DNA from: PVC group bacterium
GTDB taxonomy: Bacteria; Auribacterota; Erginobacteria; Erginobacterales; Erginobacteraceae
Assembly (NCBI GenBank): GCA_043804695.1
Contig: JAZDIV010000087.1
Span: 1 to 47,454 of the forward strand
Direction of reading: 5' to 3'
Length of the DNA: 47,454 nucleotides
The translations under genes and the position numbers were made by a program. This document shows, one piece after another, positions 6,761 to 44,090 of the stretch. The notes below the pieces were generated by a model. That model saw only the letters and a list, made by a program, of their open reading frames with translations. It was not told the origin of the DNA and made no database searches. Within the stretch, counting starts at the first letter, position 1. Each line of letters starts with the position of its first letter.

Positions 6761-6885
6761 GTTGGCTGAGGTTATAAAGCCTTTTTAAAATGTCGCCTCG
6801 ATGAAAATAGTATGGTTAACCAAGAGACCCCGATTGAATCAATCGGGGTCCACTATTTAGTAGCGCCGAAGGCGCTACTTAATAT
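6761..6885 (+). promoter_or_regulatory. Repeated promoter/leader element, copy 1 (upstream of the V-ATPase operon); homology to copy 2 extends back to ~6703
   Basis: TTGGCT(6762)-N18-TAAAAT(6786), gcctcg, aaccaa, hairpin accccgattga-a-tcaatcggggt, hairpin tagcgcc-gaa-ggcgcta. Confidence 0.7.
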
Positions 6886-6900
6886 TAAGGAGATAAAGAC

Positions 6901-7509
6901 ATGGCGGAACAATTACAGGAATTGATAGAGAGAATAAACCGGGAAGGCGTTGAATCGGCCGAGAAAAAAGCCGGAAAAATTATCTCCGAAGCGGAAGGAA
7001 AAGCAAAAAAAATTCTTGATGATGCCGAGAGGAAAGCGAAAGAAACCGGTGAAAATGCCGAACGTGCCGCCAAAAGCCTCCAGGAGAGCGCCGAGAAGGC
7101 AATCCAGCAATCATTCAGAAATGTAATGCTTTCGCTGAAGGATGAAATAAAAAAGTACTTTGACCGACTTCTAACCGGTGAAATAACAGATGCCCTGAGC
7201 AAGGACGCGCTGAGTGAGATCATTCTGACTGTTGCCAAAAATTGTGCTCAACAGATACAAGGTGACACCAAAGTGCAGGTCCTGCTGAATCCCGCCGACG
7301 CCAAAAAATTGGGTGAAGATCTTCTCTCTCGTTTCCGGAAGGAAGTTGAGACCGGATTGACGATAAAGCCGGTACCGACTATAGATGTCGGTTTTATGAT
7401 CAGTTTTGACGGCGGTGAGTCCAGCTACGACTTTACGGACCAGGGACTTCAGGAACTTCTCTCGACTTACATCAGTGCCGAATTGAAAGACATCATCGCC
7501 CGGTCATGA
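6901..7509 (+). CDS. atpE: V/A-type ATP synthase subunit E
   Basis: MAEQLQELIERINREGVE coiled-coil stalk start and GFMISFDGG...YDFTD C-terminus; first gene of the operon, with RBS aaggag. Confidence 0.9.
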   Translation: MAEQLQELIERINREGVESAEKKAGKIISEAEGKAKKILDDAERKAKETGENAERAAKSLQESAEKAIQQSFRNVMLSLKDEIKKYFDRLLTGEITDALSKDALSEIILTVAKNCAQQIQGDTKVQVLLNPADAKKLGEDLLSRFRKEVETGLTIKPVPTIDVGFMISFDGGESSYDFTDQGLQELLSTYISAELKDIIARS

Positions 7510-8051
7510 ACCGTAACTATTATTACTTCTCCGCCACCCTGCCGATGCTCTCGTTCGGTATCAGGCCTCAGGTGTCCAACGAGTCCTTTTTAATGACCGC
7601 CTCCGAGCACCTTACCAGGAGGGATTTCAGGATAATAAACAATGCCCGCCTGGTACCCCCGGAAAGCGACGGCGGCGGAGAATCCGCCCTGGAAGAGTGG
7701 ATCGCATTCGAAAATTCCCTTCGCAATGAGCTGGTCAATATTCGAGCAAAGAAAATGGGCCGCGACCCGAAGGAATATTTTCGCGGAGACTACATGCCTG
7801 ACCCCTATATAGCAGCGATGCTCCAGGAGGCCGCGGGAGCGGACAATCCGCTCATGGTGGAGAGGAGAATCGACCTTGCCCGCTGGGAAAAGCTGGGTGA
7901 GATAGAGCTTCAGCACTATTTCGATCTTCAGTTTCTGGTGGTCTATTTCCTCAAACTCCAGATACTGAACAAATGGAGTTCGATCAGGGAAGAAAAGGGC
8001 ATGATTAAACTTGATGAATTATTGAAGCCCGGAAAGGAGCCTTCTTCATGA
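7506..8051 (+). CDS. DUF2764-family V-ATPase accessory subunit (C-like)
   Basis: YYYFSATLPML start, FENSLRNELV and HYFDLQFLVVYFLKLQIL; lies between E and A as in Chlamydia/spirochaete-type operons, with ATGA overlaps. Confidence 0.85.
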   Translation: MNRNYYYFSATLPMLSFGIRPQVSNESFLMTASEHLTRRDFRIINNARLVPPESDGGGESALEEWIAFENSLRNELVNIRAKKMGRDPKEYFRGDYMPDPYIAAMLQEAAGADNPLMVERRIDLARWEKLGEIELQHYFDLQFLVVYFLKLQILNKWSSIREEKGMIKLDELLKPGKEPSS

Positions 8052-9775
8052 GCGTGAGAACAGGACGGATATCAGGGATCAACGGAAATATGCTGGTGGT
8101 CGATTTCGATGATTTCGTAAGGCAGAACGAGGTGGCGTACGCACTGATTGGAAATGAGCGCTTAAAATCAGAAGTTATCCGGGTGCGGGGAAACGCGGCG
8201 GAACTGCAGGTGTATGAAAACACGGAAGGCCTGAAGGTCGGAGATGTTGTTGAGTTCACCGGAGAACTGCTGGCCGTCGAGCTGGGTCCGGGGCTTCTGA
8301 CACAGATATTTGACGGTCTGCAAAATCCCCTTCCGGAACTGGCCGAGAAGTGCGGCTTTTTCCTGAAACGGGGTTTTTACCTCGATCCCTTGTCGGATAA
8401 GAAGAGGTGGGAATTCACCCCGAAAGCGAAAGTGGGTGAGAAGGTGACCGCCGGTGATGTTCTGGGGACGGTCCCCGAGGGGATATTCGAACACTGCATC
8501 ATGGTTCCTTTCGGTCTGAAAAGCGAATATGAAACGGTTACACTGGCTCCTCCCGGTTCCTACACAATAAGAGAGACGATTGCCGAGATCAAGGACGGGC
8601 GGGGGCAGATACACCCGGTTACCATGGTCCAGGTCTGGCCGGTGAAGATTCCGATCGCGGCCTACCAGGAAAAGCTCAAGCCGGGAGAACCGATGGTGAC
8701 CAGGGTCCGGATTATAGACACGATGGTACCGATCGCCCTGGGCGGAACCTACTGTATTCCGGGGCCGTTCGGGGCCGGGAAGACCGTCCTTCAGCAGATC
8801 ACCAGCAGGAACGCGGAAGTTGACATCGTCATCATCGCCGCCTGCGGGGAGAGAGCGGGGGAGGTGGTCGAAACCCTGAAAGAGTTCCCCGAACTGATCG
8901 ATCCCCGGACACAGAAACCCCTGATGGAGCGGACCATCATCATCTGCAATACCAGCTCGATGCCGGTCGCGGCCAGGGAGTCGAGCGTCTATACGGCGGT
9001 CACCATGGCCGAGTATTATCGCCAGATGGGCCTGCATGTTCTTCTCCTGGCCGATTCGACTTCCCGCTGGGCCCAGGCCATGCGGGAGATGTCGGGGCGG
9101 CTGGAAGAGATTCCCGGTGAGGAAGCCTTCCCGGCCTACCTGGAGTCACGGATCGCCTCGTTCTATGAGCGGGCCGGGAGTGTTCGTCTCAACAACGGAG
9201 AGATGGGATCGGTGACCATCGGAGGAGCGGTCAGCCCGGCGGGAGGAAACTTTGAAGAGCCGGTGACCCAGGCAACGCTGAAAGTCGTGGGGGCGTTTCT
9301 CGGCCTCTCCCGGGAGCGGTCGGACGCCCGGAAGTACCCGTCGATCGATGTTCTCGACTCCTGGAGCAAGTACAGGAGTTTTGTCGATGCCGGGCAGGTC
9401 GCCTGCGCCCGGCGGCTGCTGATGAAAAGCGCCGAAATCGATCAGATGATGAAGGTAGTGGGAGAGGAAGGGACATCCCTGGCCGATTTCGTGGACTATC
9501 TGAAGGGGGAGTACATAGACGAGGTGTATCTCCAGCAGAATGCCTATGACAAGGTCGATGAAGCGACCACGGCAGAGAGACAGATATATGTTTTCAACGT
9601 CCTCCATGAGATATTGATCGCCCCCCTCACATTTAAAAACAAGGATGCCGCGCGGAGTTTCTTCCACGAGATCAGGCAGATCTTCAGGAACTGGAACTCC
9701 GCCCCCTGGGATAGCGAGTCGTTCAAAAAACTGGAAGGGGAACTGAAACAAAAAGTTGCCGAGGTGACCAAATAG
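8048..9775 (+). CDS. atpA: V/A-type ATP synthase subunit A (catalytic)
   Basis: Walker A GPFGAGKT, ACGERAGE, NTSSMPVAARE, DSTSRWAQA and PGEEAFPAYL. Confidence 0.97.
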   Translation: MSVRTGRISGINGNMLVVDFDDFVRQNEVAYALIGNERLKSEVIRVRGNAAELQVYENTEGLKVGDVVEFTGELLAVELGPGLLTQIFDGLQNPLPELAEKCGFFLKRGFYLDPLSDKKRWEFTPKAKVGEKVTAGDVLGTVPEGIFEHCIMVPFGLKSEYETVTLAPPGSYTIRETIAEIKDGRGQIHPVTMVQVWPVKIPIAAYQEKLKPGEPMVTRVRIIDTMVPIALGGTYCIPGPFGAGKTVLQQITSRNAEVDIVIIAACGERAGEVVETLKEFPELIDPRTQKPLMERTIIICNTSSMPVAARESSVYTAVTMAEYYRQMGLHVLLLADSTSRWAQAMREMSGRLEEIPGEEAFPAYLESRIASFYERAGSVRLNNGEMGSVTIGGAVSPAGGNFEEPVTQATLKVVGAFLGLSRERSDARKYPSIDVLDSWSKYRSFVDAGQVACARRLLMKSAEIDQMMKVVGEEGTSLADFVDYLKGEYIDEVYLQQNAYDKVDEATTAERQIYVFNVLHEILIAPLTFKNKDAARSFFHEIRQIFRNWNSAPWDSESFKKLEGELKQKVAEVTK

Positions 9776-12080: not shown

Positions 12081-12273
12081 TAAGGCCACCAAGTCACCAA
12101 GACACAAAGATAAATTAGAGCCTTCGGCGCTAATTTAGATAGTCGGTTTTGTTTGAATCAAGGGGAATAGATTATTATCGGCGGGATGAGTTTAAATCCA
12201 ACAATTCACGCCATAACGGGAATTTTTACCCTTTATTGAATTACACTATTTTTTTGCGGAGCAAAAAAATAAA

Positions 12274-14767: not shown

Positions 14768-14830
14768 AGGTGTTAACCCGGATTATTCATGAAAATTTGT
14801 AATTTTCACGAATAATCCGGGTTAACACCT
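14768..14830. repeat. 63-bp palindrome (30-bp arms, one mismatch, 3-nt loop)
   Basis: aggtgttaacccggattattcatgaaaatt-tgt-aattttcacgaataatccgggttaacacct. Confidence 0.9.
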
Positions 14831-16527: not shown

Positions 16528-18675
16528 ATGAAGATAAAGAAAGACACGATCGTCAGGATCATCAAATCGAAAAAGAACCGGCCTTTAACCGGGGATGACA
16601 TCAGCCGTCTCCTTCGGCTCACCCCGGATGAATACCGTGAGCTTGAGCGCGTGCTCGCTGAGATGGAAGCGTCGGGCACGGTCATCCGGGTGAAGAACGG
16701 ACGCTACGCGGTGCCGAAGGAACTGGGCCTGATCGTGGGCCGTCTGGAGGTCAACCCCCGGGGCTTCGGTTTCGTGGTGCCGGAAGAGGAACGGGGGGAG
16801 GATATTTATGTTCACAAGGAGGATATGGGCACCGCCCTGCACGGGGACACCGTTCTGGTTCGGCTGGAGAGCTCGCCCCGCGGCCGCCGTTCTCACAGCC
16901 GCGCGGGGAGCGTGGTCAGGGTGATCAGGAGAGGGAGCGGGGTGATCGTGGGGACATTGAAGAAGAGCGATTCCCACTTTTATCTCATCCCCGACAACCC
17001 GTCCTTCATCCATGACATTTATGTCGACCGGGCGCGCACCCGGGACGCCGGGCCGGAGGAGAAGGTCACGGTCCGGATCACCGGCTGGCCGTCGAAGCGC
17101 CTCAACCCGGAAGGAGAAGTCGTGGAGGTTTTGGGGAGAGCGGGGGTGCCCGAGGTGGACACTCTCTCGGCGATCCGGGAGTACGGCATCCGGGAAGAAT
17201 ATCCGGAGGCCGTTCTGGAGGAGGCCGCCCGGGCTCCCGCCCGGATCCCGGAGGAAGAGACGAGAGCGCGGACCGATCTGCGGGGACTGACCCTCTTTAC
17301 CGTCGACCCGGAGGATGCCCGCGACTTCGACGACGCGGTGTCGATCGAGAAGAAGCCGGACGGGAAATTTATACTGGGCGTTCATATAGCCGATGTCTCT
17401 CATTACGTTAGGGAGGACTCGGTTCTGGACGCGGAAGCCCGGGAGCGGGGGACCAGTGTCTATCTGCCCGCCCGCGCCATCCACATGCTCCCGCCCCGTC
17501 TCGCCACCGGGATCTGCAGCCTCCAACCCGGCGAGGACCGCCTGGCCAAGTCGGTCCTGATCACCTTCAGCCCGGAGGGGGAGAGGCTGGATTTTCGTTT
17601 TCACCGTTCGGTCATCAAATCCCACCGCCGGTTTACATACGAAGAGGTGAGAAAAATCCTGGTGGAGAAGGATGCCGCGTCTCGTTCCGGCGCGCCCGAA
17701 CTGACCGCCCTTCTGGATGAAATGGCCGTTCTGGCCCGTCGCCTCCGGGAGGCCCGCTTCGCCCGGGGAGCCTTCGATCTCGACCTCCCCGAAGCGAAGA
17801 TCATCTTCGATGAGAGGGGTCTGATCTCGGACGTCCGACTGGAGGAATCGGATCTCGCCCACTGGCTGATTGAAGAGTTCATGGTGGCCGCCAATGAAGC
17901 GGCGGCGGAATTTTTAGCCGCCCGCCGCGCCCCCCTGATCTACCGGGTGCACGATGAGCCGTCCGGCCCCGATCTGGAGGAGTTCCGGGAGTTCGCGTCC
18001 GCGTTCGGCTACACGATCAAAAACCCCCGGGACCGGAGAGAGGTCCAGTCTTTTCTGGACTCGGTCCGGGAGACGCCCCTGGCGACGACCCTCCAGACCG
18101 CTTTTCTGCGCTCGCTGAAGCAGGCGGAATATTCGGCCAAAAATATCGGACATTTCGGTCTGGCCAGCCCCCGGTATGCCTATTTTACCTCGCCGATCAG
18201 ACGCTACCCGGACCTGCACACCCACCGGCTGCTGGAGTATATCCTGCAGGGGAAAACGCCGCCCCCGGAACCGGAATTGAAAGAGCTGGCCCGGCACTGC
18301 TCGGAGACTGAACGAAACGCGGAGAAGGCGGAGAGAGAGATGCTCCAGCTCCGGAAGCTCCAGTTTTTCGCCCGGCATCTGGAAGGCGCGGATCGGCCGG
18401 TTTTCACCGCGGTCATCACCCGGATAAAAAATTTCGGCCTGATCGTCTATCTGAACCGGTACCTGATCTCCGGGCTGGTCCACGTCTCAACCCTGACCGA
18501 TGACTTCTACCGGATCGACCGGTCCGGGACCCGCCTCCGCGGCCGCCGGACCGGCCGGGAGTTTACCGCCGGGGACGTGGTGACGGTGCGGGCGGAGAAG
18601 GTGGACAGGGAGTTGAAGCAGGTCGACTTTATTATTTTTTCCGCCCCGAATAAAACTTCGGGGCGGAAAAAATAA
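16528..18675 (+). CDS. rnr: Ribonuclease R
   Basis: N-terminal HTH, cold-shock domains (GFGFV), RNB motifs DPEDARDFDDA, IEEFMVAAN and HFGLA...FTSPIRRYPD, and a C-terminal S1 domain. Confidence 0.96.
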   Translation: MKIKKDTIVRIIKSKKNRPLTGDDISRLLRLTPDEYRELERVLAEMEASGTVIRVKNGRYAVPKELGLIVGRLEVNPRGFGFVVPEEERGEDIYVHKEDMGTALHGDTVLVRLESSPRGRRSHSRAGSVVRVIRRGSGVIVGTLKKSDSHFYLIPDNPSFIHDIYVDRARTRDAGPEEKVTVRITGWPSKRLNPEGEVVEVLGRAGVPEVDTLSAIREYGIREEYPEAVLEEAARAPARIPEEETRARTDLRGLTLFTVDPEDARDFDDAVSIEKKPDGKFILGVHIADVSHYVREDSVLDAEARERGTSVYLPARAIHMLPPRLATGICSLQPGEDRLAKSVLITFSPEGERLDFRFHRSVIKSHRRFTYEEVRKILVEKDAASRSGAPELTALLDEMAVLARRLREARFARGAFDLDLPEAKIIFDERGLISDVRLEESDLAHWLIEEFMVAANEAAAEFLAARRAPLIYRVHDEPSGPDLEEFREFASAFGYTIKNPRDRREVQSFLDSVRETPLATTLQTAFLRSLKQAEYSAKNIGHFGLASPRYAYFTSPIRRYPDLHTHRLLEYILQGKTPPPEPELKELARHCSETERNAEKAEREMLQLRKLQFFARHLEGADRPVFTAVITRIKNFGLIVYLNRYLISGLVHVSTLTDDFYRIDRSGTRLRGRRTGREFTAGDVVTVRAEKVDRELKQVDFIIFSAPNKTSGRKK

Positions 18676-18725
18676 TAGTTTTGAAGCTTTTGGCCTACGG
18701 ATAACGCATGCTTCAGGAGTAAAAA

Positions 18726-18850
18726 GTTGGCTGAGGTTCTAAGGCCTTTTTAGAATGTCGCCTCGATGAGAATAGTATGGTTAACCAACAGACCCCGATT
18801 GAATCAATCTGGGTCCACTATTAAATAGCGCCGAAGGCGCTAATTAATAT
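18726..18850 (+). promoter_or_regulatory. Repeated promoter/leader element, copy 2; ends 1 nt before the GTG at 18852
   Basis: TTGGCT(18727)-N18-TAGAAT(18751); closely similar to copy 1 over ~180 bp. Confidence 0.7.
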
Positions 18851-18851
18851 A

Positions 18852-20480
18852 GTGAGGGGAAATCGCAATTTCGTCATCCTCGCGGGAATTTTATTACTGG
18901 CGGCGGCGGTCCGGCTCTGGGGGATCGATTATGGGCTCCCCTGCACCTACTGCCGGCCGGACGAGGACCGGCTGATCGCGACCGCGCTCCGCCTTTCCCT
19001 CCGTGATCCGCACCCGCATTATTTTATCTGGCCCGGACTCTTTTTTTATCTCACCCGGGGCGTTCTGGAAACCGCCGCGCTCATCCACCGTCTGCTGGAA
19101 AGCGGTCCTGCCGTTACGCCGCTCCGCCTTTACTTGGCTGATCCGACCGGCTTTCATCTGGTTTTGAGATATATTTTCTGCGGCTTCGGGGTAGCCACGG
19201 TCTATTTTCTCTACCGTCTGGGCCGGCGGCTCTTTTCTCCCGCCGCCGGACTGCTGGCCTCCTTCTTCCTCGCGCTCACATTTCTTCACGTCCGGGACTC
19301 CCATTTCGCGATGCTGGATATACCGGCCGCCCTGCTGGCGGTAGTTTTTTTCCTTCCGGCGGAGCGGATCTGCGAAAGGGGCCGGTGGAGCGATTACCTG
19401 TGGTCCGGACTTCTGCTGGGACTGGCGTCGGCGACCAAATACTACGCCGTGCTGCTGGCCGTTCCCCTGATCACGGCCCACCTTTCCCGGGGGGGCAGGG
19501 GAAAGCGATCAGGAAGGTGGCGGCTCACCGCCGCGCTGGTTCTGAGCGCGGCGATATTTTTAGCCGGATCTCCTTATACGCTGCTCGACGCGGGCTCTTT
19601 TGCCCGGCAGATCAAAGATGAAATCCTGGCCCCCCAGTTCGTCAGCGGATTTCATCTCTTGCCCGGGCTGCAAACCCCCCGGGGGTGGCTCTATCATATC
19701 GTCTTCTCCTTCCGCTACGGGATGGGCTGGCCCCTCGAGGTCCTCGCTCTGGTGGGGGTCGGGTTGGCCGTCCTCCGGGCGATAAGAGGAAGGATCCCGG
19801 AGCGGCTGCTCCTGTCATTCATCCTGCCGTTTTACCTGGCGCTCTCCTTCCAGAAATCCTGCTTCATCCGCTACACCACCCTGCTCCTGCCTTTCCTCTG
19901 CCTGCTGGCGGCCGTGCTGCTCGTGTCTCTCCGGTCACGGGGAAAGTGCCCCGCGGTCCTGCTGGCATTGCTCTCCGCCTCCATCATGCTGGAGCCCGCC
20001 CTCAGGATCATCGGTCTCGATCAGCTGCTCAGCCGCCCGGACACGCGCAATCTGGCGGGAGACTGGATGGAAGGAAACATTCCGCTTACCTCGGCCGTGA
20101 TTTATTCCCAGCCGTTTATCTTCGGCCGCCCGGACGGTTTCTTCCGGTATCCCAACCGGATAAGTGCGCCGCAGGGACTCGGGGCGGCTGAGATGCGCTC
20201 ATTGCTGGATCTGGATTTACCCGGGACAAAGTACGCGGTTATCCACGAAAGCCCCCTTGCCTACTCGTCCCCGGATCCGGAGATCACGAGACTGCTGGCG
20301 GGTGAGGGGGAACTCGTTTATCGGATAGACGCTTTCCAGCTTTACCGCGCCCGGGTGGTGTTTGATCCGTTCGACGCTTTTTACGTGCCGCTGGCGGGTT
20401 TCCGGGAGGCGGCCTTTCCCGGCCCGGACATTCGGATATACGGATTCAGAAAGGCGGGAATACATTTTTTCAGCAACTGA
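18852..20480 (+). CDS. GT-C fold membrane glycosyltransferase (ArnT/PMT-like)
   Basis: VRLWGIDYGLP...RPDE motif, HVRDSHFA, ATKY, many TM segments and a DTR motif before the soluble C-terminus. Confidence 0.82.
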   Translation: MRGNRNFVILAGILLLAAAVRLWGIDYGLPCTYCRPDEDRLIATALRLSLRDPHPHYFIWPGLFFYLTRGVLETAALIHRLLESGPAVTPLRLYLADPTGFHLVLRYIFCGFGVATVYFLYRLGRRLFSPAAGLLASFFLALTFLHVRDSHFAMLDIPAALLAVVFFLPAERICERGRWSDYLWSGLLLGLASATKYYAVLLAVPLITAHLSRGGRGKRSGRWRLTAALVLSAAIFLAGSPYTLLDAGSFARQIKDEILAPQFVSGFHLLPGLQTPRGWLYHIVFSFRYGMGWPLEVLALVGVGLAVLRAIRGRIPERLLLSFILPFYLALSFQKSCFIRYTTLLLPFLCLLAAVLLVSLRSRGKCPAVLLALLSASIMLEPALRIIGLDQLLSRPDTRNLAGDWMEGNIPLTSAVIYSQPFIFGRPDGFFRYPNRISAPQGLGAAEMRSLLDLDLPGTKYAVIHESPLAYSSPDPEITRLLAGEGELVYRIDAFQLYRARVVFDPFDAFYVPLAGFREAAFPGPDIRIYGFRKAGIHFFSN

Positions 20481-20599
20481 TCGAACCGGGATATGATATA
20501 TTCCATAAGCACGCGGGCACCGCTATTGATAATATCTCCGGCATTGTTCAAAACCAACCCGAGTTATGCCTGCCTGTCGGCAGACAGGAATAAATCGGG

Positions 20600-21418
20600 T
20601 TAATGTTGTTTGAGATACTGCTTGAGAAAACGGTCAATCCTCTCAAGGTAGGGTGCCCCCGTCTGGAGAAAGCCCTCCCCGTGACTCCCCTGAATCGCTA
20701 AAAATTCTTTGGGATCGCCGGCGGCCCGGAAGAGCCGTTCCCCCTGCTCGAAGGGGACCAGCTCATCCTGCCTGCTGTGGATGAAGAGCTTGGGGAGGGC
20801 GAGGCCGGGGACTTTCATGATGGTTTCGTATTTATTGAAGATCAGGAGCCTGACGGGGAGGAAGGGGAAGATGACGTGTGCCAGGTCGACCGAAGAAGTG
20901 AAGGTTGACTCGCAGATCAACGCCCCCGCCTCTCGCAGACGGGCCAGTTCGACCGCCACGGCCCCGCCCAGGGATCTTCCGAAGATAACGATCCGCCCGG
21001 ATGGGATGTGCCGCGCCTGCCTCAGGTAGTCGTAGGCTGCCTCCGCGTCCCGGTAGGTCCCGTCCTCGGAAGGGGAGCCCTCGCTCAGTCCGTAGCCCCG
21101 GTAGTCGAAGATGAATACGTTCAGTCCCAGCCGGTGGAAGATTTCGATGCTCTCCAGCCGATGGCTGATGTTGCCCGCGTTCCCATGGCAGAAAAGCACC
21201 GTTCCCCGGTTCTGATCCGCCGGCACCCACCATCCGTGAAGTCGGAGCCCGTCGGCCGTGGCGAGAGAAACATCCTCGTACGCCAGGCCGAGATCGCACG
21301 GATACGCTTCCAGAGTTCGCTGGGGATAATACATCCGGCTCCGTTCGAACTTTCGAACCAGGAACCAGCCCAGGCTGCCAACCAGGATAAGAAGGGCGAT
21401 GAGAGCGACAATCTTCAC
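20600..21418 (-). CDS. Alpha/beta hydrolase (ABHD13/Bem46-like) with an N-terminal membrane anchor
   Basis: HGNAGNI, DYRGYGLSEG, nucleophile elbow GRSLG, IHSRQDELVP and GSH. Confidence 0.9.
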   Translation of the reverse strand: MKIVALIALLILVGSLGWFLVRKFERSRMYYPQRTLEAYPCDLGLAYEDVSLATADGLRLHGWWVPADQNRGTVLFCHGNAGNISHRLESIEIFHRLGLNVFIFDYRGYGLSEGSPSEDGTYRDAEAAYDYLRQARHIPSGRIVIFGRSLGGAVAVELARLREAGALICESTFTSSVDLAHVIFPFLPVRLLIFNKYETIMKVPGLALPKLFIHSRQDELVPFEQGERLFRAAGDPKEFLAIQGSHGEGFLQTGAPYLERIDRFLKQYLKQH

Positions 21419-21567
21419 TTTATTTTTTCTGCGAAAAAATAAATTGTATAAACTATGCTCTAAAAGAGAATATATGCTTCAGGAAGAAAATGTTATCTGT
21501 ATCAATTCGAAAAAATCAGAGTGGGTTGCCTTAAGCCAACAGAAAAATCATATCCCGGAAGACAAAT

Positions 21568-21687
21568 GTTGGCTGATGTTGGAAAGGCTTTTGTATATTG
21601 TTGCCTCGGTGAAATATCTTAATTAACCAACAGACCCGACGCAGTCGGGTCCATTATAAAGTAGCGAGCGCAGCGAGCTAATTTATA
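21568..21687 (+). promoter_or_regulatory. Repeated promoter/leader element, copy 3
   Basis: TTGGCT(21569)-N19-TATATT, gcctcgg, aaccaacag, hairpin acccgac-gca-gtcgggt, hairpin tagc-ga-gc-gca-gc-ga-gcta. Confidence 0.65.
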
Positions 21688-21756
21688 AAGAATACTTGAT
21701 TTTCCGCGGGGACGACTATATTAATTATTATGTTGCCGATTGTTAAACCTATATTT

Positions 21757-21860
21757 TACTGCTTCGAATTTTCCCGACACACGTCGGGATCCCGATTATA
21801 AAATACTTTTGAATAAATGAATCGGGACAATAATCTTATTTTTTCTTCGAAAAAATAAGA
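21757..21860 (+). repeat. ~100-bp dispersed repeat, duplicated at 27680-27787
   Basis: Both copies share gaattttcccgaca...gtcgggat...aatacttttgaata(a/t)atgaatcgggacaataatcttattttttcttcgaaaaaataaga. Confidence 0.85.
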
Positions 21861-21872
21861 GGAGAGGAAAGC

Positions 21873-22544
21873 ATGGCTCACCACGAATCCTGGAGATACC
21901 TGCCGGCGCTGCTGGGGTTGCTTCTTTTGCTTCCCCCCGTCACCGGCGCGGGTGAGGAGCCGGCGGCCCCCGCCGCCGGGCAAGAGGTCGCCCCCATCCG
22001 CCTTGAGCAGTCCAAGAGCGGCTCGGTCCTGATCCTGGAAGAGGATGAAACGGGCGCCGCACCGAAAGATCCGGCGGTTAAAGACGACGGGCTGTCCGGC
22101 CAGCCGGCCCCCGCGCTGCCTCCCGGGCATCGCGCTTTCCGGGACCAGCACGTCCGGTTTTACGTCGAGGATCTTCCGACCGGCCTGGATCGCGCGATCA
22201 AGGCCGCCGCGGCCTCCGGGGGTCAGCTGATCACCTACCCGATCAAGGGGTTTGACAACATGGGCCCGAATGAGAGGACCCTGGTCTTCGACGCCCGGGT
22301 CTACCCCTCGTTCCTGACCAAGCTGGAGGCACTGGGCACGGTGGAGTCCCCCGAACTCGGCCCCTCGGATTTCATCACCGTCCGGCTGACGGTGCTGAAA
22401 AAGAAGGAACCGGAGGAGAGAAAACCGGCGGCGCCGGATGCCGGGGAGACGAAGAGCCCGGATGGCCTGATTGTCATCGGTGCCGGCATCGCCGCCGTTT
22501 TATTGTTTGTCGCGCTCGTGCTGATACTGAGGAAAAAGAAATAA
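21873..22544 (+). CDS. Exported protein with a signal peptide and C-terminal TM anchor (hypothetical)
   Basis: RBS gaggagagg; signal-like YLPALLGLLLLLPPVTGA; C-terminal hydrophobic helix followed by RKKK; GC3-rich codon usage. Confidence 0.75.
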   Translation: MAHHESWRYLPALLGLLLLLPPVTGAGEEPAAPAAGQEVAPIRLEQSKSGSVLILEEDETGAAPKDPAVKDDGLSGQPAPALPPGHRAFRDQHVRFYVEDLPTGLDRAIKAAAASGGQLITYPIKGFDNMGPNERTLVFDARVYPSFLTKLEALGTVESPELGPSDFITVRLTVLKKKEPEERKPAAPDAGETKSPDGLIVIGAGIAAVLLFVALVLILRKKK

Positions 22545-22563
22545 CCACGGCAAGGAGGAGATC

Positions 22564-23046
22564 ATGATCGGATTCCGATTGTTGGCGATTATCCTGGGGC
22601 TTGTCTGTCTGGCGTCGGCGGGCGTCCTCGTGTTTCACGAATATCCGCTGCTGGCCGAGGCGAACACATTCTTCATCCGGAACTTCATCCCGGACGCCGG
22701 CGTGCAGGCGTTCATCAAGTCGCCGGCCCGGGAGGCGGTGGCGGTGAAGAACATCGTCAGGTACATCTTCAGCGGCTACGCCGTCCTCGCCCTGGGAATG
22801 GGGCTGCTGTTTTTTTGCGCGGCGGTCAACCCTCTGCGGATGCGTCCCTTCATCGTGGTGGTGATGATAGGATCGATCCTCTGGATCGCAGGGGCGATCT
22901 GGAAGGGTGTGAGCTTGGATATATATAAAACGTGGTGGATCAGCGATGCCGCCGGGGCGTTGATTCTCCTGGTCCTCCTGATCGCCCTCTTCCCGAAAAA
23001 GAAACCGGCCGCCGACCAGTCCGCCCCGGAGATGGGGAAGGAGTAA
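22564..23046 (+). CDS. Hypothetical integral membrane protein (4 TM)
   Basis: RBS aaggaggag; four hydrophobic segments. Confidence 0.75.
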   Translation: MIGFRLLAIILGLVCLASAGVLVFHEYPLLAEANTFFIRNFIPDAGVQAFIKSPAREAVAVKNIVRYIFSGYAVLALGMGLLFFCAAVNPLRMRPFIVVVMIGSILWIAGAIWKGVSLDIYKTWWISDAAGALILLVLLIALFPKKKPAADQSAPEMGKE

Positions 23047-23183
23047 AGAAAGAAGAGGGAAGATTGGAGATCAGGTTATCAGCATATCAGTGGGAAGAAT
23101 ACCGGGAGATCAGGTTATCAGGCGAGGCCGGCCTCGCTGACCGATCCTCTGGTATTCTGATCCTCTTCCTACGGATCTCCTGA

Positions 23184-23762
23184 TTATCTGATCCGCTTAT
23201 GCAGAGCGCTCCCTTGGCCTCGTATCTCCGGGTTGAAGGAAGAAATCTCCTCCAGGGGTTTGCGCGGGGTTCTTGTTCCCTCATCTTCGGCCGGGTAGCC
23301 GAGCGGGATCAGCGCCACCGGCTTCTCCTCCTTCGGCAGCCCCAGAAGGCGGCTGACGGCCCGGGCGCTGAACCATCCCACCCAGCATGTCCCCAGCCCC
23401 AGTTCGGCGGCCTGGAGGACCAGGTGCTCGCCGGCGATCCCCAGATCGATCAAGGGATAGTGCTTGCCCTGAAAACGGCCGGCCAGGTTCGGGAGCCGCT
23501 TCCCCTTCGTGTTCAGGGCGACGATGACGACGGGCGCCCCGCTGACGAAACCGCTCGGCCGGTAGATCCCGGAGCCGGCCGCCCGGCAGATCGCCTCCCT
23601 CTTCACCGGATCGTCGAAGACCAGGAATTTCCAGGGCTGCGCGTTGCAGGCGGAAGGAGCAAGGCGGGCCGCCTCCAGGCAGAGCCGGATTTTTTCGTGC
23701 TCCACGGGACGCTTTGAGAACCTCCGAACACTGCGGCGATTTTTTACCAATTCGAGGAACAT
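23184..23762 (-). CDS. Nitroreductase family protein
   Basis: MFLELVKNRRSVRRF, LAPSACNAQPW and AAELGLGTCWVG; start moved from the ORF-track value to the ATG at 23762. Confidence 0.9.
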   Translation of the reverse strand: MFLELVKNRRSVRRFSKRPVEHEKIRLCLEAARLAPSACNAQPWKFLVFDDPVKREAICRAAGSGIYRPSGFVSGAPVVIVALNTKGKRLPNLAGRFQGKHYPLIDLGIAGEHLVLQAAELGLGTCWVGWFSARAVSRLLGLPKEEKPVALIPLGYPAEDEGTRTPRKPLEEISSFNPEIRGQGSALHKRIR

Positions 23763-23888
23763 GGGTTGGAGAAGACCGGGGTGATGGAGTAATGGATGCG
23801 CACCGGCGCCGGCAACCCACCACTCCAACACTCCCTTTTGTTCAGTCCGTTATCATTGCCGCAGAGGATGATTTTGTTGGACGTGCTG

Positions 23889-24374
23889 CTATAACTCCAC
23901 CAGCTCCGCTTCCATGGTCTCCGTTTCGAGCAGGGCGGCGGTCGCCCGGCCGGTTATCCACCCTCCCCCCTCGCCCGGGTTGATGACCAGGGTCTTGCCC
24001 CGGCGGGTAATCTCCGCCCGGTGGGTGTGGCCGTAGATGATCACGTCATAGACGCCACTTTGGACCAGGGCGTCGAGCATGTCCGGCTCGTGGATGAGAA
24101 GACATTTCTTCCCGCCGAACTCGCCCTCGTAGCGTTTGGGGTGGATTGTCCCGATCTTCTTGAAGCGCTCGGTCAGGAATAACCTGTCGCCGTCGTTGTT
24201 CCCGAAGACGCCGATCAGGGGTGCCTTCAAATCGTCGAATTCCTTAGCCGTGATCGGCGAGATAATATCGCCGCCGTGAAGGACCACCGCCACCTCTTCC
24301 CGGTTGAAAAGTTCGACGGCATTCCGAATCATGGGCATGTTTTCATGTGTGTCGGATATAATCCCGATCTTCAT
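23889..24374 (-). CDS. YfcE/MJ0936-family metallophosphoesterase
   Basis: MKIGIISDTH, HGGD, GNND, YGHTH and INPGE. Confidence 0.92.
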   Translation of the reverse strand: MKIGIISDTHENMPMIRNAVELFNREEVAVVLHGGDIISPITAKEFDDLKAPLIGVFGNNDGDRLFLTERFKKIGTIHPKRYEGEFGGKKCLLIHEPDMLDALVQSGVYDVIIYGHTHRAEITRRGKTLVINPGEGGGWITGRATAALLETETMEAELVEL

Positions 24375-24510
24375 GGCGGTCAATGTACCATGCACCAAGT
24401 TAGCGCCTGCGGCGTAACTTGGTGTAAAGTTTAAAGTGGAAAGTGTAAGGGATCTTTACACTTTACACCTGGCACTTTACACAGCTGCATTGAAATTCCG
24501 AAGCAGCAAG

Positions 24511-26100: not shown

Positions 26101-26149
26101 GAGCGATGATGACGGATTTGTCTGTTAGGTCTATTGAAATTAATGCGCG

Positions 26150-27676: not shown

Positions 27677-27834
27677 ATTCCCGCTGCGGAATTTTCCCGA
27701 CATCCGTCCCGACATCCGTCGGGATAACAATACTTTTGAATATATGAATCGGGACAATAATCTTATTTTTTCTTCGAAAAAATAAGAATGGTATATCTGA
27801 AGCCGATAGATCAGTTATATTCCATGGGGTAAAT

Positions 27835-27960
27835 GTTGGCTGAGGTTATAAGGCTTTTTATAGTGTTGCCTCGGTGAAAATATTTTAATCAACCAACAGC
27901 CCCCCCGACTAAATCAGTTGGGGGGGTTAATGTAAAGTAGCGCCGAAGGCGCTAATTTAC
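27835..27960 (+). promoter_or_regulatory. Repeated promoter/leader element, copy 4
   Basis: TTGGCT(27836)-N17-TATAGT(27859); hairpin ccccccgact-aaatc-agttgggggg; hairpin tagcgcc-gaa-ggcgcta. Confidence 0.7.
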
Positions 27961-27973
27961 TGCTTCGGAATTT

Positions 27974-28033
27974 TCAGCCCGAGGCTTCAGCTCGAGGCTG
28001 ATCCGCCTCAGGCGGAGATGCGCCTCTGGCGCA
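27974..28033. mobile_element. 30-bp double-hairpin mini-element nested inside another copy of itself
   Basis: tcagcccgaggct[tcagctcgaggctgatccgcctcaggcgga]gatgcgcctctggcgca; free copies at 38276-38305, 44147-44176 and 47298-47327. Confidence 0.7.
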
Positions 28034-28238
28034 CAATAACCATCAAGATACTAAACAATATAGCGCCCCCACGCCTCTGCCGACGAGTAGTTTTTTAACT
28101 TTAGGCACTTCAAACTTTAGGCACTTCAGAACATTGCCCGAACGAAGTGAGGGCTAAGTTCTTTTATTATTGTCTTGCCCCTTTGTTCTGGTGTAACGTA
28201 CTGTTTAAACATATATGAATATTATGCAGGATATAAAT

Positions 28239-28366
28239 GTTGGCTGAGGTTATAAGGCTTTTTTATGTTGATGCCTCGATTAATTTATATCAGTTTAACC
28301 AGCAGACCCCCGACGCCATTGTCGGGGGTCCAGTATAAATTTGCGAGCGCAGCGAGCTAATTTATA
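28239..28366 (+). promoter_or_regulatory. Repeated promoter/leader element, copy 5; abuts the ftsH ATG
   Basis: TTGGCT(28240)-N18-TATGTT(28264); hairpin acccccgac-gccatt-gtcgggggt; final hairpin then tttata-ATG. Confidence 0.7.
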
Positions 28367-30352
28367 ATGGCGAACAGGCAGCAACCGAAAGGCAAGTTTC
28401 CGCAGGTCCAGAACCCGAAGAAGCTGAAGTACCTCATCATCTGGCTGGTGCTGGGGATCGGGGTGATCTATCTCTATTACGGGCAGCAGCTCGGGCGCCC
28501 CTCTCCCCGCCGGCTCAGTTATTCCGAGGTGGTCAATTACGCCCAGAGCGGCCAGATCGTCAAGCTGGCAATCAACGGCGAAGAGGGAACCGGCCAGTTT
28601 CTGGACGGGAAAGAATATAAGGATTTTACCGTGATTCTTCCCGCTCTTCTGCCGGCCGACTTTTTGCCCCTGCTCAGGGAAAACAATGTCGAGATCGATT
28701 TTACCAAGGCCAGCTGGTGGAAAGAAATTCTGCCCATCCTGATCGGGCCGCTGCTCTTTGTCGGGCTTCTCTGGCTTCTCTTTTATCACCAGATGCGGGG
28801 GGCCGGGAAGGGGGCACTGAGTTTCGGCAAGAGCCGGGCCCGTCTCCACAAGGGAACGGACAAGTTCACCTTCAAGGATGTGGCCGGGGTGACGGAGCCC
28901 AAGGAGGAACTGGAGGAGATCATCGCCTTTCTGAAGGATCCGAAGAAATTCCAGCGTCTGGGGGGCCGGATCCCGAAAGGGGTGATCCTGATCGGGCCGC
29001 CCGGCACCGGAAAGACGCTCCTGGCCAAGGCCGTGGCCGGCGAGGCCAGTGTCCCCTTCTTTTCTCTCTCCGGATCGGACTTCGTGGAGATGTTCGTCGG
29101 GGTCGGCGCCTCCCGGGTCCGGGACATGTTCGAGCAGGGCCGCAAGAACGCCCCCTGCATCATCTTCCTCGACGAGATCGACGCCGTCGGCCGCCACCGG
29201 GGGTCGGGCCTGGGCGGCGGCCATGACGAGCGGGAACAGACGCTGAACCAGCTGCTGGTAGAGATGGACGGATTCGAGACCAAGGAGGGGGTGATCCTGA
29301 TCGCCGCCACCAACCGGCCGGACGTCCTCGACCCGGCCCTCCTGCGGCCCGGCAGGTTCGACCGCCAGATCATGATCGACATGCCCGACATCAAGGGGCG
29401 GGAAGAGATCCTCAAGGTCCACGCGGAGAAGATCGTCCTCGCCCGGTCGGTCACCTTCTCCCGGATCGCCCGGGGGACGCCCGGTTTTTCCGGCGCGGAC
29501 CTGGCCAACCTGATCAACGAAGCGGCCCTGCTGGCGGCCCACAACGGCAAGAAGAGCGTCGGCATGTTCGAACTGGAAGAGGCCCGCGACAAGGTGCGAT
29601 GGGGGAGGGAGCGGAAAAGCCGGGTGATGGACGAGGAGGACCGGAAGGTGACCGCCTACCACGAAGCGGGCCACGCGCTGGTCATCACGTTGATCCCGGA
29701 TGCCGAGCCCCTTCACAAGGTCACCATCATCCCCCGGGGGATCGCCTACCTGGGAGCGACGATGCAGCTTCCGGAGAAGGACCGGTACCTGGAATTCAAG
29801 AAGAAGCTTCTGGGCGTGGTCACCGGCCTCTTCGGGGGAAGGGTAGCCGAGGAGATCACTTTCGGCGACATCACCGCCGGCTCCCGGAACGACATCAAGA
29901 TCGCCACCGGGCTGGCCCGGCAAATGGTCTGCGAGTGGGGGATGAGCGATAAGATGGGGCCGATGACATACGGGGAGCATGAGGAATATCTCTTCCTGGG
30001 CCGGGAGATAACGCGGTCGAGCGATTACAGCGAGGCGACCGCCCAGGAGATAGACCGGGAGATCAAGAAGATCATCGACGAGTGTTACCGGCGCGCGCAG
30101 GATCTCCTCGCCGGGCACCGGAACAAGCTGAGGGCCCTGGCCGAGGCGCTTCTGGAGTACGAGGTCCTCAATGGCGAGGAGATAAATGAGGTCATCGAGA
30201 CCGGGAGATTAGCACTGAAAGCCGGCCGGAGAAAGAAGCGCCGGCCGTCGGAAGAGAAGAACCAGCAGAAGGTGACGAAGCCAGAGGAGGACAAAGAAGC
30301 GATTCCGGAACCGGGACTTCTTTCTCCGGCCGAGAACCCCGCCTCCCCCTGA
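28367..30352 (+). CDS. ftsH: ATP-dependent zinc metalloprotease FtsH
   Basis: Two TM segments, Walker [40 protein letters not shown] and HEAGH. Confidence 0.98.
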
Positions 30353-30369: not shown

Positions 30370-31260
30370 ATGATGGAAAAATCGGCACGCGCTTCGTTTC
30401 TGCTCGAATGGACGGACCGTCCGGGGCGCGGCCATCGCCTCTCCCTGGGCGGCGAAACGGTGGTGATGGGAGTTCTCAACCTGACCCCCGATTCATTCTA
30501 TGACGGCGGATTTTATCCAGGCGTCGAAGCGGCGGTGGACCGGGCGCTGGCGATGGAGAAAGCGGGGGCCGGGATCATCGATCTGGGGGGCGAGTCGTCC
30601 CGCCCGGGCGCCGAACGGGTCACGGCTGACGAAGAGCTGCGAAGAGTGATGCCGGTCCTGGAGCGTCTGGTCGGACGCCTCTCGGTCCCGGTGTCGATCG
30701 ACACCTGCCAGGCGGCGGTGGCGGCCCGGGCGCTGGAAGCAGGGGCGCAGATCGTCAACGACATCGGCGCCCTGGGGCTTGATCCCGGAATGGCTTCCGT
30801 GGTGGCGGACCACTCCGGGCCCTACGTGATGATGCACATGCAGGGCACTCCCGGAACCATGCAGGAGCGGCCGTTCTACCGGGACCTCTGGGGAGAGCTG
30901 AAGGAATTTTTCCGGGAGCGGATCGAGCGGGCGGCATCGGCCGGGATCGATCCCGGCCGGATCATCATCGACCCCGGGATCGGCTTCGGGAAGACGCCCG
31001 ACCATAACCTGGAGATCATCGCCGGGCTCCCGGCCCTGGCCGGGCTGGGGCGCCCGATCCTGGTCGGGCCGTCCCGGAAGTCATTCATCGGGGCGATCCT
31101 CGACCAGCCGCCGGCGGCCCGCCTCTGGGGGACCGCGGCGGCGGTCGCGGCCTGCGTCCTCGGGGGGGCTCACATCGTCAGGGTTCACGACGTTGAGGAG
31201 ATGAAGGACGTGGCCGCGGTCACCGACCGGATTAAATTAGCGGCTACGCCGCTAATTTAG
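30370..31260 (+). CDS. folP: Dihydropteroate synthase
   Basis: MGVLNLTPDSFYDGG, GGESSRPGA, DPGIGFGK, SRKSF and RVHDV. Confidence 0.97.
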   Translation: MMEKSARASFLLEWTDRPGRGHRLSLGGETVVMGVLNLTPDSFYDGGFYPGVEAAVDRALAMEKAGAGIIDLGGESSRPGAERVTADEELRRVMPVLERLVGRLSVPVSIDTCQAAVAARALEAGAQIVNDIGALGLDPGMASVVADHSGPYVMMHMQGTPGTMQERPFYRDLWGELKEFFRERIERAASAGIDPGRIIIDPGIGFGKTPDHNLEIIAGLPALAGLGRPILVGPSRKSFIGAILDQPPAARLWGTAAAVAACVLGGAHIVRVHDVEEMKDVAAVTDRIKLAATPLI

Positions 31261-33506: not shown

Positions 33507-34241
33507 ATGAGTGAAAGGATCAAACTGGGAGTCAACATCGATCACGTGGCCACCATCCGGGAGGCCCGGAAGGGAAAAGAGCCCGACCCGGTCTGGGCCG
33601 GGGCTCTCTGCGAACTGGCCGGGGCCGACATCATCACGGTCCATCTCCGGGAGGACCGGCGCCACATCAACGACCGGGACCTGCGGCTTCTCCGGCAAAC
33701 GGTGCAGACCAAGCTCAACCTGGAGATGGCGGACACCGCCGAGATCATCAGGATCGCCCTCGAGGTCAAGCCGGAGCAGGTGACACTGGTCCCGGAGAAA
33801 CGGGAAGAGGTGACGACCGAGGGGGGGCTCGACGTCCGGACGAACCTGGTTTCGCTGTCGGCGGCCGCCAAGAAGTTTCGGGAGGCCGGGATCCTGGTCA
33901 GCTACTTCATCGACCCGGCGGAGGAGCAGCTGCTGGCCAGCCGGGAGGCCGCCGCCGATTTTGTCGAGCTCCACACCGGGGCCTTTGCCAATGCGGTTGG
34001 CGAGAAGGCGGTTGACCGCGAGTTCAAAAAACTCTTCGCCGCCGCCGAACGGGGCAGGGAGCTGGGGCTGCGGATCAATGCCGGCCACGGTCTCAACTAC
34101 CTGAACGTGCGGCGGATCCTCTCCCTCCCCGGTCTGGAAGAACTCCACATCGGCCACAGCATCATCTCCCGGGCGGTTTTCGTCGGCCTCGGCCGCGCGG
34201 TCCGGGAAATGATTAATATTATTTTTTCTTCGAAAAAATAA
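33507..34241 (+). CDS. pdxJ: Pyridoxine 5'-phosphate synthase
   Basis: [45 protein letters not shown] and HIGHSII. Confidence 0.98.
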
Positions 34242-34322
34242 TAGATGTAATCAAGCCGATATAAAAGTTGTATAGCAGGAATTATTAATCCGACCGTGGT
34301 AGTATTTACAGCAAGGATTGCG

Positions 34323-35509: not shown

Positions 35510-35745
35510 CGATAAATTAGCGCCTCCGGCGCAACTGGGTGACGGTTACGGTAACGAGGCCCGTTTCGTCTGGCGGTTAGGGTCACGTGGGCCAGGTCCC
35601 GCCGTTACCGTTACCCTGACCGATTCGGGCTTCGTTACCCTAACCGTTACCTTTTTTGAAATTCCGAAGCAGTAAATTAGCTCCCTTCGGCCGCTAATTT
35701 ATACTCAAATATATCGTTCTTATTTTTTCGAAGAAAAAAATAAGA

Positions 35746-38224: not shown

Positions 38225-38378
38225 TTTTTAAAGCGAGTCCGGTTGTGGGGAAAGATCTATATAATGACGAAATCCTCAGCCAGAGGCTGATCCGCCTTTG
38301 GCGGAGAATGACGCATGAATGGATAAATCCACAAGTCGAATGCCCCGGGCTACTCCCCACTCCCCACTGCCTATCGGA

Positions 38379-42943: not shown

Positions 42944-42958
42944 CAGCAATCAGCTCAC

Positions 42959-43030: not shown

Positions 43031-43082
43031 ACGTTGATTGATTATCCGTGAAACTGTAGTCCATCCGCGCGGATGATTTCAA

Positions 43083-43970
43083 CTATTTCTTCCGCGGCCC
43101 GCGGCGGTAATGCGACCGGCCGCCCCAGTTCAGCTTGCTGCGCAGGATCGCGTAGTAGCTTGATCCGGGGGCGGTCAGGAGGTGCAGCCGGCTTTTTCCC
43201 CGCCGGACAATGACTTCATCGCCCTTCTGAAGGGGGAAGCCGACCTGGCCGTCAACGGTTAGAACGGTGCCCGGCGGATGAGAGATCAGTTTGATTCTGA
43301 TTTCCCTGTCCCCCCCGAGAATGATCGGCCGGTTGGTCAGCGTATGCGAGCAGATCGGGTTCAGGAGAAAAGCATCGGTCTCCGGACTGATGATCGGCCC
43401 CTGGGCCGAGAGGGAATAAGCGGTGGAACCGGTCGGCGTGGCCAGGATAATTCCATCGGCCATGTAAGCGGTCAGGTAATCGCTATCGACAAACGTTTCC
43501 AGGTGGATCACCCGGGCTAGGCCCCCTTTCCCGATCACGATTTCATTGAGAGCGGTGAAGAACTCGACCTCCGCCCCGTTTCGCCGGCAGCAGCCGTCCA
43601 GGGTGTTTCTCTGTTCCACCTTCAGTTTGCCGAGGAGCAGATTCTCCAGCGCCGGTTCGGCGGCGTCGAGACGCACCTCGGTCAGGAATCCCAGTCCTCC
43701 CAGATTGATGCCGAGGAGGGGGATCTCTTTGCGGTCCAGCTGCCGGAAAGTCCGGATCATGGTTCCGTCGCCGCCCAGGACGACGAGGGCGTCGATCTCC
43801 TCGTTGACGGCTTCCAGGGAGAACGAGGTTCCCCCGTGCGGGAGGGCGGCGGCCAGGGCGGTCTCGAAAAAGACCCCCCCTCCCCGTTCCCGGATGCCGC
43901 GGGCGATTCTCTCCGCCTGACTGAGGGCGTTCTTCTTGTTCAGGTTGGCAACGATTCCAATCGTTTTCAT
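43083..43970 (-). CDS. nadK: NAD kinase
   Basis: LGGDGT, GINLGGLGFL, LNE and ADG...ATPTGSTAYSLSA. Confidence 0.96.
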   Translation of the reverse strand: MKTIGIVANLNKKNALSQAERIARGIRERGGGVFFETALAAALPHGGTSFSLEAVNEEIDALVVLGGDGTMIRTFRQLDRKEIPLLGINLGGLGFLTEVRLDAAEPALENLLLGKLKVEQRNTLDGCCRRNGAEVEFFTALNEIVIGKGGLARVIHLETFVDSDYLTAYMADGIILATPTGSTAYSLSAQGPIISPETDAFLLNPICSHTLTNRPIILGGDREIRIKLISHPPGTVLTVDGQVGFPLQKGDEVIVRRGKSRLHLLTAPGSSYYAILRSKLNWGGRSHYRRGPRKK

Positions 43971-43971
43971 T

Positions 43972-44090
43972 ATATAAATTAGCGCCTTCGGCGCTAATTT
44001 ACAATGGACCCGACTTCGTCGGGTCTGTTGGTTAACGATACTATTATCATCGAGGCAACACTCTAATAAAGCCTTATAATCTCAGCCAAC
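43972..44090 (-). promoter_or_regulatory. Repeated promoter/leader element, copy 6; abuts the nadK ATG, homology extends to ~44121
   Basis: Reverse complement reads TTGGCT-N18-TAGAGT, gcctcg, aaccaacag, hairpin acccgac-gaa-gtcgggt, hairpin tagcgcc-gaa-ggcgcta, tttatata-ATG. Confidence 0.7.

Follow-up and report, generated by a model that had tools for sequence, protein, structure and literature searches.

The 47,454-nt contig JAZDIV010000087.1 of a PVC group bacterium (assembly GCA_043804695.1, Auribacterota, Erginobacteraceae), referred to here in its full length as the window (contig C87 of the host genome G000), carries six copies of a repeated element with two hairpins in front of genes. 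With a probability of about one half, we read this element as a lineage-specific, one-directional, interspersed mosaic repeat that resides within 5' untranslated leaders, and not as a conserved promoter. The element is present in many copies of a single prevailing polarity, most of which adjoin a start codon; the pairing of its two hairpins is under selection and its 65-nt module is unstructured; its sites turn over between congeners, it has undergone a recent burst in the host genome and its range is limited to one family.

A repeat family that adjoins start codons

An earlier note, made from the sequence alone, had located copies at 6761(+), 18726(+), 21568(+), 27835(+), 28239(+) and 44090(-), and all six positions and strands were confirmed. 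Their alignment covers ~160 columns with a mean column identity of 73%. The succession of TTGGCT and, 17-19 nt further on, TAAAAT, TAGAAT, TATATT, TATAGT, TATGTT or TAGAGT is indeed seen in 6/6 of these copies, and those at 18726, 28239 and 44090 end, as described, 2-5 nt ahead of a GTG or ATG without a Shine-Dalgarno sequence. With their upstream pieces the copies extend as follows:

6714..6886, + strand: copy 1, type A upstream piece, module from 6761; TTGGCT 6762-6767, TAAAAT 6786-6791, hairpin 1 6827-6849, hairpin 2 ~6853-6885
18679..18851, + strand: copy 2, type A upstream piece; TTGGCT at 18727; hairpin 2 immediately before GTG 18852 of a PMT_2 (GT-C) glycosyltransferase
21519..21692, + strand: copy 3, type C upstream piece; core from 21568; more repeat modules before ATG 21873
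27786..27962, + strand: copy 4, type B upstream piece; core from 27835; more hairpin modules, then copy 5
28205..28366, + strand: copy 5, core from 28239; end of hairpin 2 at 2 nt from ATG 28367 of ftsH
43971..44140, - strand: copy 6, core from 44090 leftwards; hairpin 2 43974-44001, before ATG 43970 of nadK

Copy 1 is followed by AAGGAG and then by ATG 6901, where a V/A-type ATPase operon begins. This first gene, called atpE in the earlier note, has only a weak match to subunit E (22.2 bits against a cut-off of 23.5), whereas the A and B subunits farther downstream are clear.

A profile of the six window copies, searched with nhmmer against the host assembly (E<1e-3), returned 144 matches, well beyond what chance would give. 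The figure of six is thus correct for the window but is an effect of its limits, since the genome as a whole holds 73 full copies plus one that is interrupted. The matches fall into four classes:

full length: 73 matches
5' parts: 3 matches, two at contig ends and one, on contig C63, belonging to an interrupted full copy
without the 5' part: 24 matches
hairpin 2 alone: 44 matches

The copy on C63 is a full element split by a nested insert of ~150 nt. The full copies occupy 0.47% of the assembly, a draft of 2.97 Mb in 155 contigs with 57.8% G+C and 88% completeness, and their true number is probably higher because nine of them lie within 260 nt of a contig end.

The unit had been put at ~120-130 bp; alignment of the 73 copies extends it ~50 nt farther upstream, to ~180-200 nt, and resolves it into a variable upstream piece (at least three variants), a 65-nt module whose conservation is confined to its sequence, hairpin 1 and hairpin 2. 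A profile of the 65-nt module has 82 matches, 73 of them within full copies; as the other 9 are all contig ends, 5' truncations or the split copy, this module never stands alone, whereas hairpin 2 and the pair of hairpins do occur independently of it.

Both hairpins have G+C stems, and their loops are either G-N-A triplets closed by C-G or AAT. The claim that hairpin 1 varies in sequence but keeps its pairing held up well: among 34 copies from four genomes, pairing in its outer stem reaches 96.9%, and four pairs have both partners changed. For hairpin 2 the figure is 89.8% in the same set, and covariation supports both structures. Pairs that switch across a larger set of 135 copies include:

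pair 81-89: T-A in 57, C-G in 36
pair 74-96: A-T in 64, C-G in 34
pair 104-128: A-T in 107, T-A in 20
pair 114-118: C-G in 64, G-C in 42

Because pair 104-128 switches, the stem of hairpin 2 continues through its A/T flanks to ~15 pairs, and the foot of this extended stem lies 0-3 nt from the start codon in copies with a short spacer. Fold z-scores against shuffled sequences are -7.0 for hairpins 1 and 2 together, -2.6 for the 65-nt module alone and -0.7 for the upstream piece. Two additional helices had been suggested around the putative promoter, and neither survives: the five pairs of GTTGG/CCAAC are formed in 53-70/73 copies and the six pairs of GAGG/CCTC in 38-62/73, but departures are one-sided (for instance A-C in 15 copies, C-A in 14 and T-C in 11), uncompensated breaks amount to 3-35/73 copies depending on the pair, and covariation lends these helices no support. 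Mutual information over the 135 copies gave no other convincing pairing inside the module. A helix between the upstream piece and GTTGGCT, paired in 37-62 of ~70 copies, gave mixed signals and is not claimed. An integron attC site was also considered and rejected by inspection: of the core sites RYYYAAC / GTTRRRY, which pair at the base of such a site when it folds, GTTRRRY is matched by neither GTTGGCT nor GTTAACC, and GTTGG does not stay paired with CCAAC.

Counting co-oriented open reading frames of at least 60 codons (gene calls beyond the set checked with Pfam follow a crude rule based on open reading frames and on GC3, the G+C content at third codon positions), 57/73 copies have a start within -11..+12 nt of the element end. 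Four further copies are co-oriented with a gene at 155-400 nt, with other repeat modules in between, one full copy runs off its contig, and 11/73 are either directed at the 3' end of a convergent gene or unresolved. The co-orientation noticed in the window therefore extends to 61/73 copies genome-wide. In 43 of the 57 start-abutting copies, 4-12 nt of A/T-rich sequence without a Shine-Dalgarno separate the GCTA that closes hairpin 2 from the start codon; the remaining 14 have a spacer of 15-24 nt, and a clear Shine-Dalgarno is present in 12 of these. The 16S rRNA of the host ends in the usual CCUCC tail, that is, a normal anti-Shine-Dalgarno. The start codons are considered genuine since the Pfam domain begins at residues 1-10 in many of the downstream proteins.

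As the earlier note had seen in the window, the downstream genes are mostly core genes, and their functions are unrelated. A Pfam family (E<=1e-5) was assigned to 49 of the 65 downstream proteins scanned, and no common functional theme was found among these 49; the set includes ribosomal proteins L13 and L27, SecE, peptide deformylase, PheA, RecG, pyruvate kinase, PRPP synthetase, HPr kinase, LptF/G, LptE, NadC, NadK and FtsH. None of the 36 tRNA genes of the host genome has an element match within 400 nt upstream.

Consistent with the earlier remark that no known riboswitch could be recognized, there is no Rfam match at gathering thresholds in the whole window; with permissive filters, the stretch 27700-28400 yielded one match at chance level (snoZ242, 16.6 bits against a cut-off of 90, E=0.2). 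Titles and the opening lines of abstracts, in literature outside the subscription journals, on Auribacterota, on miniature inverted-repeat transposable elements and outward promoters, and on repeats at start codons contain nothing that describes the element. The covariance model matches 4/79 genomes of the phylum, all within a single family (genera g1, g3 and g4), and none of the five genomes of genus g2 (75-97% complete). A blastn search, with matches in 5/31 genomes, one of which has hairpin 2 only, agrees with this range. Some 45 distinct full copies are found in a congener of the host (G001), and fewer in representatives of two further genera of the same family (G003 and G004). On contigs C23 and C25 of the congener, the same element and gene were observed with equal scores, a duplicate stretch in an assembly with a stated contamination of 8%. 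The ftsH upstream regions of eight related or PVC genomes gave no match to the covariance model; the closest named record to the FtsH of the window is that of Candidatus Euphemobacter frigidus (Candidatus Auribacterota, PVC group), at 78% identity.

Turnover of sites between congeners

Contig C3 of the congener is syntenic with the window between 16.5 and 31.3 kb, and syntenic coding DNA is 72-86% identical. Empty sites, which the earlier note had proposed to look for in relatives, do exist: an intact element is present at 0/5 of the window genes in the congener. Upstream of the ATPase operon, the spacer measures 135 nt without the element in the congener versus 305 nt in the host; just past parB, TTGACA-N17-TACACT in the former corresponds to TTGACA-N17-TACTCT in the latter, where the element sits between this conserved canonical promoter and the Shine-Dalgarno. 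The entire spacer of the glycosyltransferase gene consists of another repeat type in the congener, with the start codon at the orthologous position; this site of copy 2 (G001:C3:31408-31627) contains two facing arrays of short AT-rich units that form a long hairpin. Gene 21873 is preceded in the congener by a degenerate copy without hairpin 1 (E=8.8e-7), and copy 3 of the window is almost identical to several other copies of the host. For ftsH and nadK, the congener has hairpin 2 only, flush with the ATG, and the ftsH hairpin carries an extra insert in its loop. Besides hairpin 2, the sole stretch upstream of ftsH that matches between the two species is TTGTCT-N18-TAnCGT. A third case is a gene for a 160-residue protein, which has TGtTATAAT upstream in both species, followed by a full element in the congener and by hairpin 2 alone in the host. 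Two candidate native promoters of this kind lie in the window:

6655..6683, + strand: candidate promoter of the ATPase operon, TTGACA-N17-TACTCT, just past parB and upstream of copy 1
28170..28199, + strand: candidate ftsH promoter, TTGTCT-N18-TAACGT, upstream of copy 5

A species-conserved sigma70-type promoter is thus recognized upstream of the element or of the empty site at three loci (the ATPase operon, ftsH and the 160-residue gene), which would place the element in the 5' untranslated region (UTR), where it is not needed as a promoter.

In the reverse comparison, the orthologous sites of 11 congener genes with a copy were sought in the host:

full copy at the orthologous site: 3 genes (hprK, an M16 peptidase, nadC)
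hairpins 1 and 2 only: 1 gene
no copy: 2 genes, one of them a weak ortholog at 59%
host contig ends at the site: 2 genes
no ortholog match: 3 genes

The hprK copies of the two species (C32:5762-5913 in the host) share 95% identity and are each other's best match; identity is 78% and 77% for the remaining two ortholog pairs. Copies with a close neighbour (>=90% identity) number 28/73 in the host and 3/45 in the congener. There has been a recent burst in the host genome, and occupancy differs between congeners. As the empty alleles of ftsH, nadK and the 160-residue gene keep hairpin 2, we hypothesize either that the module and hairpin 1 arrive beside an existing hairpin 2, or that whole units replace hairpin 2 by recombination through it.

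These data also bear on whether the element is a shared cis-regulatory RNA leader, whose module and/or hairpins would be recognized by a protein or small RNA, co-regulating ~60 genes at the post-transcriptional level. Such a leader would account for a module conserved in sequence without structure, for the fixed place beside the start codon and for the 95% identity of the hprK copies. However, the gene set has no functional theme, the congener orthologs mostly lack the element, Rfam contains no match, and a recent burst of near-identical copies fits spreading and not a stable regulon; we consider this explanation very unlikely.

The window contains other repeats, some of which accompany the element. 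Solitary hairpin-2 modules and other structures are located as follows:

2020..2047, strand unassigned: solitary hairpin-2 module at a gene end
12110-12137, 31232-31259 and 35512-35539: other solitary hairpin-2 modules
6683-6713, 21415-21445, 21831-21861, 27758-27788 and 34214-34244: A/T-only hairpin module with a TTCG or TGCG loop
18630-18678: A/T-only hairpin module that forms the final codons of gene 16528-18675, with a nested G+C hairpin in its loop
27968-28020, 38257-38309, 44128-44180 and 47279-47331: module of two or three short consecutive G+C hairpins
3619-3825 versus 47253-47454: inverted copies of ~200 nt, arms 78-94% complementary, built of short purine-rich units
14768-14830: near-perfect palindrome of 30+30 nt, 97% complementary, with a 3-nt centre

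The A/T-only hairpin at 6683-6713 begins at about the expected transcript start of the TTGACA-N17-TACTCT promoter, and that at 21415-21445 abuts the GTG start of the divergent gene 20600-21418. The module with a row of short G+C hairpins accompanies several copies of the element and has many matches in the congener.

The promoter-like motif

The earlier note favoured a portable promoter-plus-leader cassette, in which an active sigma70-type TTGGCT-N17-19-TAnnnT would start transcription ~7 nt downstream and the two hairpins would form the 5' leader of the gene. In the host genome alone the pattern described there is borne out. The strict motif TTGnnn-N16-19-TAnnnT, found in all window copies, occurs in 32/73 copies genome-wide, and the relaxed TnGnnn form in 49/73; agreement with the hexamer consensus is 67, 63, 46, 35, 37 and 59 of 73 at the six positions in order, so that the conservation of T, A and T noted earlier stands for this species. 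A promoter-consensus scan of 18000-29000 flagged 2/4 copies, with 9/12 matches, the organism appears from its sequence to use TTGACA/TAnnnT-type promoters, and 61/73 copies point toward genes. The frequency of the strict motif shows a weak trend with context, in small numbers (8/13 copies between divergent genes, 4/11 facing gene ends, 18/43 among other co-oriented copies).

The congener gives a different picture. The strict motif is present in only 1/45 of its copies (3/17 in the two further genera) and the relaxed form in 7/45; the A of the hexamer is kept in 17/45 and the final T in 19/45, such that the conservation of the three bases does not hold there. The columns of the '-10' are the least conserved of the whole module, whereas the flanking T-run and GCC block are kept in 39-44/45 copies. 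As the congener copies are more diverged (median identity within the module 0.54, versus 0.72 in the host), they reveal the long-term constraint, and the '-10' is not part of it. Within the host itself, G replaces the hexamer A in a diverged subfamily, yet the copies of this subfamily still abut start codons. Together with the conserved native promoters at three loci and the copies that point into the 3' end of a convergent gene (11 in that class), these observations make the cassette possible but doubtful, and the rewiring of housekeeping operons that the earlier note attributed to it is not borne out. Tentatively, promoter activity may be a secondary or incidental property in the host. It is not a function that the family has conserved. 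Nor does the element resemble an intrinsic terminator: hairpin 2 is followed by A/T-mixed sequence in the direction of the gene and not by a run of U, and a terminator scan of 18000-29000 picked out a single copy, on its opposite strand, and none on the + strand.

Possible routes of spread and related elements

The mobility of the element is inferred from its distribution only, because no transposase, inverted ends or target duplication was found. The best ungapped terminal inverted repeat, between the first 40 nt of the consensus and the reverse complement of the last 40 nt, has 10/17 identities. Mean identity of flanking 9-mers is 3.98, against 4.04 +/- 0.09 for shuffled partners, as measured at the flanks of the block formed by the module and hairpin 1 in the 59/73 copies with both anchors, and not at the outer ends of the whole unit. 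Hairpin 2, whose stem covaries, is an imperfect palindrome with a conserved 5' tetranucleotide, as expected of a REP-type sequence (GTAG before the stem in 40/73 copies, TTTG in 11 and TTAG in 10). A RAYT gene flanked by the same palindromes was not found in the host genome, where six Y1_Tnp matches are all more than 2.5 kb from any element match. Outside the window, at C62:5669-6157, a 163-residue RAYT-like Y1 transposase gene is bordered on both sides by several G+C palindromes of a different family, and looks like a classical REP/RAYT system beside the element family. Searches of the host genome recovered no TnpB, the flanks of its single IS110-family gene are unlike the element, and blastn against plasmid and phage collections gave no match to the element. 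One exact pattern match in a viral contig was not confirmed by the covariance model.

These results are relevant to the possibility that the element acts as DNA, its hairpins being single-stranded recognition sites for a recombinase of the Y1/HUH or another type, or its module binding a nucleoid protein, with any effects on mRNA as by-products. The GTAG tetranucleotide, the G-N-A loops closed by C-G, the single direction, the Y1_Tnp matches and the lack of both inverted ends and target duplication, as in IS200/IS605-type elements, are in line with this explanation, as is the lack of an excess of G-U over A-C on the sense strand. The distance between the Y1_Tnp genes and the copies, the different palindromes of the clearest RAYT-like gene, the missing TnpB, the dissimilar IS110-family flanks and a start-codon fit left unexplained nevertheless render it decidedly unlikely.

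By analogy, the element would work most like the Correia, BOX and BIME kinds of repeats. Correia repeat enclosed elements (CREE) of Neisseria are flanked by a TA duplication. According to the literature, CREE are short (~100-150 bp), high-copy intergenic repeats beside genes, which are co-transcribed, can create promoters into the neighbouring gene and have RNA-level structure, all of which we count as likeness; the same sources describe them as bounded by inverted repeats, which our element lacks. It differs further in the absence of a target duplication, in its one fixed direction and in ending at the start codon.

BOX of Streptococcus pneumoniae and BIME/REP of enterobacteria are modular mosaics of short hairpin units, intergenic and transcribed with their neighbours. 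The likeness, drawn from descriptions and not from sequence, lies in the recombining modules of our element, with the 44 solitary hairpins 2, the 24 matches lacking the 5' module and the nested insertions. REP/BIME are mostly located at gene 3' ends and are linked with a RAYT gene that has the same REP on its flanks; in contrast, 57/73 copies of our element lie against 5' ends, and the palindrome beside the RAYT-like gene is a different one. Gene-less IS200/IS605 derivatives (palindrome-associated elements) have hairpins close to their ends and a single direction, and they lack both inverted ends and target duplications. Our element shares these traits, its hairpins being near its end, and Y1 homologs exist in the genome; unlike them, no copy encloses or adjoins a transposase gene, TnpB was not found and no fixed target word was identified. 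Likeness to sigma70-type promoters is confined to the motif itself, common in the window and in the host but nearly absent from the congener.

Several observations weigh against the view that the element is a mosaic repeat of 5' leaders. A transposase, terminal inverted repeats and target-site duplications were all sought for it without success. Copies end flush with start codons more precisely than would follow from random insertion, which hints at a selected function. The hexamer of the host, with T/A/T kept and three inner positions variable, has the pattern expected of a -10 in use. Counts of G-U versus A-C in the stems (38 versus 24 in hairpin 1, 30 versus 49 in hairpin 2) fail to single out the sense RNA. 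Finally, the hprK copies, at 95% identity against 72-86% for coding DNA, suggest that at least this copy may be under constraint.

Retaining nonetheless the mosaic repeat of 5' leaders, we infer from sequence a mechanism involving co-transcription from upstream promoters, folding of the RNA, an influence on mRNA stability or on the start of translation, and a route of spreading. The element would be copied to new intergenic sites or exchanged between sites, the older and independent hairpin 2 perhaps providing the landing or recombination point. It would then be transcribed with the downstream gene from an upstream promoter, as the conserved promoters of the three loci suggest. Its two G+C hairpins, with their G-N-A or AAT loops and selected pairing, would fold either as RNA or as single-stranded DNA. 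At ~43 genes, hairpin 2 and its A/U-rich foot occupy the place of the Shine-Dalgarno and may serve as the start-codon context. The unstructured 65-nt module may be kept as a sequence signal for whatever spreads or binds the element, and the sigma70-like -35/-10 that it contains in about half of the host copies, but not in the congener, may add incidental outward transcription.

A bolder proposal, which we regard as unlikely, is a mobile 'expression front end' that homes to a start-codon hairpin and brings along a promoter directed outward, a pair of hairpins that protect the leader and a start context independent of a Shine-Dalgarno; at least 57 core genes, among them ftsH, nadK and those for pyruvate kinase, L13 and SecE, would by now depend on it as their functional 5' end, and it would be exchanged between loci in real time. 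The apparent conservation of a -10 within one genome, which dissolved on comparison with a congener, calls for caution when sequence is read. If the reading of the element as a mosaic repeat of 5' leaders is correct, 2-3% of the genes of this bacterium, many of them essential, share a hairpin-rich leader of recent spread whose end falls on the start codon, so that a Shine-Dalgarno has no room, despite the normal anti-Shine-Dalgarno tail of the 16S rRNA. The lineage would thus be a natural test case for translation start beside a stable hairpin, as well as for the extent to which selfish repeats may occupy 5' UTRs harmlessly.

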